From Obrimoposthia wandeli (Eukaryota), in assembly GCA_977020255.1 (NCBI GenBank), contig CDROCS010001556.1:1-64000 (forward strand): a stretch of 64,000 nt of DNA, written 5' to 3'. Below, piece by piece: positions 31,381-31,891 of this stretch (its first letter is position 1; every line of letters starts with the position of its first letter). Both the position numbers and the translations under genes were made by a program. Under the pieces are notes generated by a model, which worked only from the letters and a program-made list of their open reading frames with translations, was not told where the DNA came from and made no database searches.

Positions 31381-31891
31381 ATGTTTCTGAATAATATCAA
31401 ATTGGTTAACATGAATTATAAGGGAAAGGTTTTAAGCTCCACCAAGGACTTACCTTTTCGCAAATCAAAACCCCAACAATATCGTCTCAAGTGTCTAGAT
31501 TATACTATAATACTCTTTAAATCTGGTAAATTATTTTATTATAAAATATTAATATTTTTAAGGCTCCTGCCGAGTAATGGGTTGTAAAAAAGTGTTAGAT
31601 GAAAGCACTTTACCATTTAATATAAAAATCGAAAGAATTCAATCAATTACTGTTAGTGTTGACTTGGAACATTGGATAAATCTTAACAATATGAGTGAAA
31701 ATATGGGAATTGATGCAGTTTATGAACCTGAAATATTTCCCGGACTTCGTTGTATTAAGTATAATCCACTTTGTGTAAACATTTTTGTTAGTGGGAAAGT
31801 TATGATTTTAGGTTTAAAGACTCTAGATTATGAATTTCTGGTTGAAGTTATTTTGTATAATATATCTCTGTTCACTTGTATTTTTCTTTAG
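31381..31891 (+). CDS. TATA-box-binding-protein (TBP)-like protein, two exons (31381-31525, 31563-31891), 157 aa
   Basis: Removing a 37-nt GT-AG intron gives IILFKSG|SCRVMGCKK; second repeat IQSITVSVDL...YEPEIFPGL...IFVSGKVMILG matches the TBP core (YEPELFPGL...IFVSGKVVLTG). Confidence 0.85.

Follow-up and report, generated by a model that had tools for sequence, protein, structure and literature searches.

A TBP-like protein encoded by Maverick/Polinton elements of Obrimoposthia wandeli, and a TATA-like motif before their packaging and capsid genes

Beta- and gammaherpesviruses, nuclear DNA viruses that use host Pol II and whose early genes stand on ordinary promoters, encode TBP-like proteins (vTBP; ORF24 of KSHV, BcRF1 of EBV) associated with a variant TATA box found before late genes only. 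ORF24 reads TATTWAA late promoters, has a polar DNA-binding face and needs five other viral activators (passages of PMC12529657); it binds Pol II directly via an N-terminal domain of its own and is without the glutamates that contact TFIIB. TBPs are also known from large DNA viruses (Mimiviridae, phycodnaviruses, asfarvirus B263R), most of which bring their own TFIIB; in these proteins the N-lobe regulatory signature is not conserved and the first TFIIB-binding glutamate is ~40% conserved (passages of PMC7221094).

Mavericks encode capsids, while particles have not been observed according to PMC8097293. A gene labelled 'TBP' stands on the map of a MELD virus, an element with adintovirus-like PolB, in the legend to Fig. 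5 of Starrett et al. 2021 (PMC8502044); that legend gives no family, motif, intron or mechanism, and the gene may belong to the family described below. Term searches found no mention of TBP in PMC11071308, PMC8097293 with its supplement, PMC10748475 and PMC11131425, or in the main texts of the preprints 10.64898/2026.10.13.758929 and 10.64898/2026.06.19.733378, and a search of the open literature, mostly of main texts, brought up no work on a Maverick TBP or on the motif YATAAACR; subscription papers, repeat databases or supplements may annotate the gene.

The element and the mini-TBP gene

The window, i.e. the whole stretch of 64,000 nt analysed here, contains a Maverick/Polinton element of 12,880 nt (29272..42151) with ends AGTAG..CTACT, flanked on the left (29266..29271) and right (42152..42157) by the 6-bp target-site duplication GATAGT. 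Its left terminal inverted repeat (29272..29854) matches the right end at 90-95%, with indels, and the right repeat region spans 41080..42151. Together with the repeats and the duplication, three plus-strand genes over their Pfam cut-offs identify the element as a Maverick: an A32-like packaging ATPase (31956..32600; PF04665, E 9.9e-7), a retroviral-type integrase (32996..34054; rve, PF00665, E 1.2e-12) and a protein-primed DNA polymerase B (pPolB, 38020..41625; PF03175 on both halves, interrupted at 40058-40195). The matches of the PZ-position core protein (32718..32999; weak Adeno_PX match, E 0.0023) and of the adenain-like protease (36586..36918; Peptidase_C5, E 0.0031), both also on the plus strand, lie under the cut-off. 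The likely minor capsid protein (34174..34953, plus strand), for which a Pfam search gave nothing over cut-off, was assigned from gene order and conservation in relatives; the likely major capsid protein (35301..36529, plus strand), in three pieces in the window copy, is 51-57% alike to a 412-aa ORF of the related locus L062, which itself has a weak DJR-like match under cut-off (E 0.039). The gene order (ATPase, PZ, integrase, minor capsid, PW, major capsid, protease) agrees with that of vertebrate Mavericks in PMC8097293, from which the PZ, PW and minor capsid assignments were inferred.

By its sequence the family of this element is large and young: 150 matches were listed, among 29,781 candidates, all 96-100% identical. 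Lesions particular to the window copy affect the integrase, by an in-frame stop at 33530-33532, and also the genes of the major capsid protein and the SSB. A 164-aa ORF 3' of the protease (36966-37460) is conserved, has the motif described below upstream and is without a Pfam match; we take its acidic start, FIDFE, to be like that of DEDD exonucleases. Remains of other Maverick copies lie on the minus strand just left of the element (27360-28689; pieces of ATPase, PZ and integrase) and further left (13085-13569; a capsid-like piece). A BIR (inhibitor of apoptosis) ORF (17064-17525) and an ankyrin-repeat ORF (20204-20827), both on the minus strand, may be host genes or element cargo, and two tandem repeats, a 15-nt array with long open frames (4781-6106) and a 112-nt repeat (59719-60390), are outside the element.

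The packaging ATPase gene follows the mini-TBP gene (31381-31891, plus strand, 511 nt) after a gap of 64 nt. The sequence-only reading had described a single gene of 157 aa; the DNA holds two ORFs in different frames, of 68 aa (31381-31587) and 104 aa (31577-31891), and the figure of 157 aa is recovered only if a 37-nt GT..AG segment (31526..31562), of which that reading made no mention, is an intron (511-37 = 474 nt). Predicted exon 1 (31381..31525) covers most of a shortened N-lobe and aligns with the N-termini of homologues, whose first residue falls on window codon 8, so that the start codon is uncertain; predicted exon 2 (31563..31891) covers the end of the N-lobe and a complete C-lobe with the stirrup YEPEIFPG. 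The second ORF (31577-31888) matches PF00352 (E 1.5e-11; 44.4 bits, curated cut-off 22.9) and solved TBPs in the PDB (E 1.4e-11), while a Pfam search with the 68-aa ORF by itself matched nothing. The gene does stand directly before the structural genes in the window, as had been claimed, but among relatives it can also follow the protease block or stand back to back with pPolB.

On the other side, on the minus strand, lies a gene for a predicted T7 gp2.5-like single-stranded DNA binding protein (30289..30504), of 71 aa in the window copy and 129 aa in 17 of the 28 copies examined; a gene of this kind of 115-130 aa adjoins the mini-TBP gene in 28/56 metagenomic loci (e.g. L037:1788-2135). Pfam, PDB-sequence and Atlas searches gave no name for it, and a homologue model matched T7 gp2.5/Enc34 SSBs and ASFV CP312R (Z 8.4, 8.0 and 6.8). 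Because the neighbour folds like phage SSBs, a role as TBP cofactor is disfavoured. One host family has two tandem SSB-like paralogues beside the mini-TBP gene (L134:4157-5142).

Fold, conserved surfaces and descent of the mini-TBP

The structure was modelled for a homologue, P0002, which is 59% identical to the read-through of the window gene. The model (pLDDT 96.1) is a two-lobed saddle, found similar to TBP by Foldseek (E 1.7e-9) and superimposable on human TBP with Z 14.0 and rmsd 2.3 over 147 residues, and the identity of mini-TBP to cellular TBP is 20-26%. Hence the earlier identification of a TBP core holds by both profile and fold, as do its lack of an N-terminal extension and its shortened first repeat. 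Cellular and archaeal TBPs (PF00352), with which the mini-TBP has the saddle and the C-lobe stirrup YEPExFP in common, measure ~180 aa, the mini-TBP ~150 aa. The C-lobe of the model is complete, whereas its N-lobe (positions 1-62) lacks any helix as long as 4 residues, and the alignment has a deletion at the N-lobe helices that canonical eukaryotic TBP devotes to TFIIA, TAF1, Mot1 and Brf1.

Canonical eukaryotic TBP has four intercalating Phe, and the mini-TBP three, present in 44/44 homologues; the column of the first stirrup Phe, where the alignment is uncertain, has F in 9/44 and Y in the window, a change that could weaken DNA binding. Where canonical TBP has an Asn in the first strand of each repeat, the family keeps it in the first repeat (43/44) and has S in the second (43/44), so that the S for N noticed in IQSITVS turns out to be a family trait. 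Compared with cellular TBP, NIV has become NIN, the second-strand N has become S, MVCTG has become CRxMG, and L before the last Phe has become N. The new near-invariant residues (P0002 numbering, n=44) are N6 (43), R46 (44), M48 (44), S70 (43), T72 (40) and N115 (44), at positions that correspond to DNA-facing ones in cellular TBP.

The acidic pair of the canonical C-lobe is also present: E97 in 42/44 (D in the other two) and E99 in 44/44. These stirrup glutamates bind TFIIB in cellular TBP, and the N-lobe is the binding site of TFIIA, TAF1, Mot1 and Brf (passages of PMC7221094). No TFIIB-like gene was detected by a Pfam TFIIB search of 16 accessory ORFs of the elements or by tblastn with pieces of host TFIIB/BRF (nothing at E<1), searches that a remote homologue could escape. 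In contrast to the TBPs of large DNA viruses, which share the TBP fold and gave a best BFVD match of E 5.5e-8, both glutamates are here near-invariant, without a detected TFIIB-like gene. In contrast to ORF24, the Maverick protein keeps both glutamates and is a bare 150-aa core; the fold match to BcRF1 is weak (E 1.7e-3) and does not by itself show common descent.

In a sequence search over lengths of 92-296 aa, 58 of 89 candidates proved to be homologues; their identities span 36-61%, and 45 have a length of 143-165 aa. A profile search returned 60 clusters with E values of 1e-30 or lower. A core Maverick gene was also matched in 22 of the 56 metagenomic loci with a mini-TBP, many of the remaining ones being just 1-3 kb long. 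The median dN/dS was 0.176 over 39 pairs, those of 378 with dS 0.1-1.5 and >100 codons. The host genome has TBP and TRF-like genes of its own, and a quick maximum-likelihood tree (89 of 151 rows, with long branches, two partial host rows and no viral TBP labelled) separated 21/21 cellular-labelled from 9/9 Maverick-context rows by a branch with SH-aLRT 100, the labels being derived from motifs and a few database names. Scans of viral contigs with the TBP alignment, the ATPase and the ATPase alignment found no relative. As the mini-TBPs form a conserved family branching apart from host TBPs, they are not a recent host capture: the 58 homologues, the purifying selection and the separate branch rule out the recent one-copy acquisition of host TBP that had been named as one refutation of a TBP of the Maverick's own, and point to an old family carried by many elements. 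We therefore regard the mini-TBP, judging from sequence comparison, as a real, conserved Maverick-encoded variant of TBP.

Several host loci were seen along the way. Two canonical host TBP genes (L085/L086, G000:C238:870559-875236) stand in opposite orientation ~1.2 kb apart, each with an intron of 50-51 nt at one common site. Two near-identical, divergent host TRF-like genes (L088, L089; G000:C60 and C1092) have their core in one open frame, and one of them adjoins Maverick fragments. Several BRF-like copies (L136-L143; G000:C1245, C1202, C1124, C5487), of which L139 and L142 lie beside Maverick remains, were possibly carried or duplicated by elements.

The YATAAACR motif and its candidate readers

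A non-standard TATA-like sequence, TATAAACA, stands 5' of the capsid and packaging genes. The plus strand of the element has eight copies of YATAAACR, against 1.8 in shuffles (maximum 6, n=200). They are found 35 nt 5' of the ATPase ATG (31921..31928), before the PZ/core-protein region (32571..32578), 37 nt 5' of an in-frame ATG in the integrase ORF (33001..33008), ~100 nt before the PW-position gene (34851..34858; the spacing in L062 and L116 is similar), 36 nt 5' of the major capsid ATG (35265..35272, with another copy at 35233), before the protease gene (36525..36532) and 34 nt 5' of the 164-aa ORF at 36966 (36932..36939). Just 3' of the motif, the integrase regions (window 33038 onward; L062:3410-3658) start with a short Met-Gly, Cys-containing ORF or extension, which is a possible lipidated peptide.

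Scored in positions -80..-1 of the gene start, at loci all picked through their TBP gene, the motif precedes the ATPase in 21/22 cases (0.6 expected; 19 of them at 32-41 nt), PZ in 15/17 (0.3 expected), the major capsid gene in 12/14 (0.4 expected) and the 36966-type ORF in 7/8 (0.2 expected), and its distance from the ATPase, PZ and capsid genes is mostly 32-42 nt. In these four sets it was found 55 times in sense and never in antisense orientation. It precedes the protease in 3/5 cases and, at the start assignments used, the integrase in 4/17 and the minor capsid gene in 0/3; it lies within 80 nt of the SSB gene in 8/45 rows. The motif is kept in 14 of 15 ATPase groups (85% cut) with flanks just 36-38% alike, and also in L080, whose ATPase is 38% identical. 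It was found before 0/56 mini-TBP genes, 0/4 zinc-finger ORFs and 0/1 pPolB genes. Mini-TBP genes have instead a canonical TATA in 31/56 cases (11.2 expected); in the window the candidate box is TATATAAG (31272..31279, plus strand). The base after TATAWA is C in 47/66 sites before morphogenesis genes, and in 0/49 before mini-TBP genes.

A polyadenylation role for the motif is disfavoured, since ATAAAC follows an A at just 1 of 47 sites and keeps a fixed distance to the downstream ATG. The 143-bp tandem duplication at 30513..30794, with four minus-strand motif copies inside, was disfavoured as a TBP target because it is polymorphic (two copies in 16 of 28 loci, one in 10, none in 2); the short motif would be the better candidate.

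A second, distant Maverick lineage of the same genome served as control. No TBP-like match was found in 19 of its 20 stretches, and the single match lay inside an adjoining TBP-type element; YATAAACR occurred in 1/34 upstream windows. A PF04665 search for control elements gave three matches, two of them TBP-bearing. As the control is one lineage of decayed copies, covered by 10 kb per side so that accessory genes may be missed, its result is suggestive only. Together with the fixed motif before morphogenesis genes, it lends indirect support to the promoter-specificity factor proposed in the sequence-only reading.

We consider it rather probable that the mini-TBP is a late-gene promoter factor that reads YATAAACR and uses host TFIIB and Pol II. 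Host TBP would transcribe the mini-TBP gene early, from its canonical TATA box, and the host spliceosome would take out the 37-nt segment. The remodelled saddle would favour TATAAAC(A), in which C occupies TATA position 7, beside the base step at which insertion by the changed N-lobe is expected. The N-lobe of TBP supplies the Phe pair at step 7/8; if this applies here, the lobe that has changed most would lie opposite the changed base. Insertion of Phe pairs by TBP occurs at TATA steps 1/2 and 7/8 (passages of PMC1935006). The retained stirrup glutamates would dock host TFIIB, a partner proposed because no element-encoded TFIIB was detected, and the loss of the N-lobe helices would release the mini-TBP from control by TAF1, TFIIA and Mot1. 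The packaging, capsid and protease genes would thus be switched on late, where 'late' is deduced from gene function; in this placement before morphogenesis genes the motif resembles the variant TATA of herpesvirus late genes. With a TBP gene aboard and capsid and packaging genes behind TATAAACA, the element probably carries a switch of its own for particle-building genes, working with the host RNA polymerase. Whether a broad animal Maverick branch runs a two-stage gene programme by means of a spliced 150-residue TBP with a rewired DNA face, which would read a TATAAACA box reserved to it and rely on the TFIIB and Pol II of the host, seems to us an evenly balanced question. We conclude that the mini-TBP is probably a new form of viral TBP mimicry, which would work like the herpesvirus vTBP and stands outside both that family and the canonical TBPs, the host TBP clade included (SH-aLRT 100 in the quick tree).

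The main rival, which we hold to be unlikely, is that host factors read the motif, either host TBP, for which it would be a weak variant of TATA, or a forkhead protein, and that the mini-TBP is a general, regulation-proof substitute for TBP that raises the output of every element promoter with no sequence preference of its own. ATAAACA within the motif fits the forkhead consensus RYAAAYA, but GTAAACA, GTAAATA and ATAAATA occur 0 times in 61 windows before morphogenesis genes. Wild-type TBP has been crystallised on a C(-25) TATA variant (title of 1qn3), which speaks against a private promoter factor, and TATAAACG leaves 27% of the activity in plant protoplasts (passages of PMC10005294); cellular TBP can thus use such a sequence. 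The lost N-lobe regulatory surface would likewise fit an escape from Mot1 (passages of PMC7221094). However, host reading does not account well for a motif fixed in strand and distance, for the absence of C at position 7 before the TBP genes, or for residues of the presumed DNA face that are changed yet near-invariant.

The suggestion, also made from sequence, that the protein is a decoy of TFIID is weakened by a model that is without the N-lobe helices, where TAF1, TFIIA and Mot1 bind (PMC7221094). A decoy might instead tie up host TFIIB or cover host TATA boxes and so dampen host transcription during element replication; the retained glutamates and the reduced N-lobe of the model agree with this, but a pure decoy needs neither a conserved remodelled DNA face nor a matching cis-motif, and the family is present at at least 150 near-identical copies in the host, so that we regard a decoy as improbable and as fitting less well than the late-promoter reading.

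Predicted introns and implications

The 37-nt segment (31526..31562, plus strand; phase 1, 95% AT) begins with GTAAAT and finishes with TTTAAG, and is predicted to be a spliceosomal micro-intron. It is no copy-specific lesion: the 59-nt junction containing it is exact in 120 genomic places (control 0), and among copies picked by their likeness to the second half of the gene it has an indel in 0/28 loci and keeps GT..AG in 26/26 other copies that cover it. In the read-through with X the extra 12 residues correspond to a gap in 42/42 aligned homologues. Other elements have segments of 38-41 nt in the same phase, mostly just 41-68% alike between families, those of sister families being 38-40 nt long and unrelated in sequence; altogether, four host families and one metagenomic element carry segments at that phase, and L097, L098 and L106 have a mini-TBP gene without one. 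Compared with a sister family in which the segment is also present, exon 1 gave pN 0.149 and pS 0.765, and further values are pN 0.15-0.16 and pS 0.73-0.76 (saturated); by these, both gene halves are under purifying selection. Four sequencing runs of unspecified kind from one sample showed no joint across 31526-31562 among the 15 joints listed, a further 146 lying outside the listing, which speaks neither for nor against splicing. In pPolB, a 138-nt GT..AG segment (40058-40195) interrupts the motif FFSIPG/LS; the same site is likewise interrupted in L102, L104, L108 and L112 run through it without a break, and the segment is likely a second intron. Whereas the core genes of intact vertebrate Mavericks are reported as intronless, two family-wide GT..AG interruptions, both predicted introns, occur here.

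The 37-nt segment is most likely a spliced micro-intron, and the alternative that it is an unspliced insertion, the gene of this family being dead and its copies relying on intronless sister families, is very improbable, for although intact vertebrate Mavericks are described as intronless (passages of PMC8097293), the two host TBP introns measured are longer (50 and 51 nt) and one end is changed at 3 of 10 interrupted loci, the unlike segments are bounded by both GT and AG at one phase in the other 7, selection acts on both halves, a second segment in pPolB is common to L102, and animal intron-length modes near 32 nt exist (passages of PMC4040987). Predicted introns of this kind would link the elements to nuclear Pol II transcription and would account for ORF callers overlooking the mini-TBP gene or breaking it up.

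None of the Maverick papers examined addressed how the genes of these elements are switched on, and a TBP with a late-type promoter offers a direct handle on this question. If the late-promoter reading is true, the mini-TBP would prefer TATAAACA over TATAAAAG, the motif would predict start sites, and loss of the factor would predict loss of capsid-gene transcripts. The protein would then be a natural TBP re-specified to a new box with its TFIIB dock kept, unlike most viral TBPs, and would do in one protein what the late complex does in herpesviruses. It would also be evidence that Mavericks time virion assembly like true viruses.
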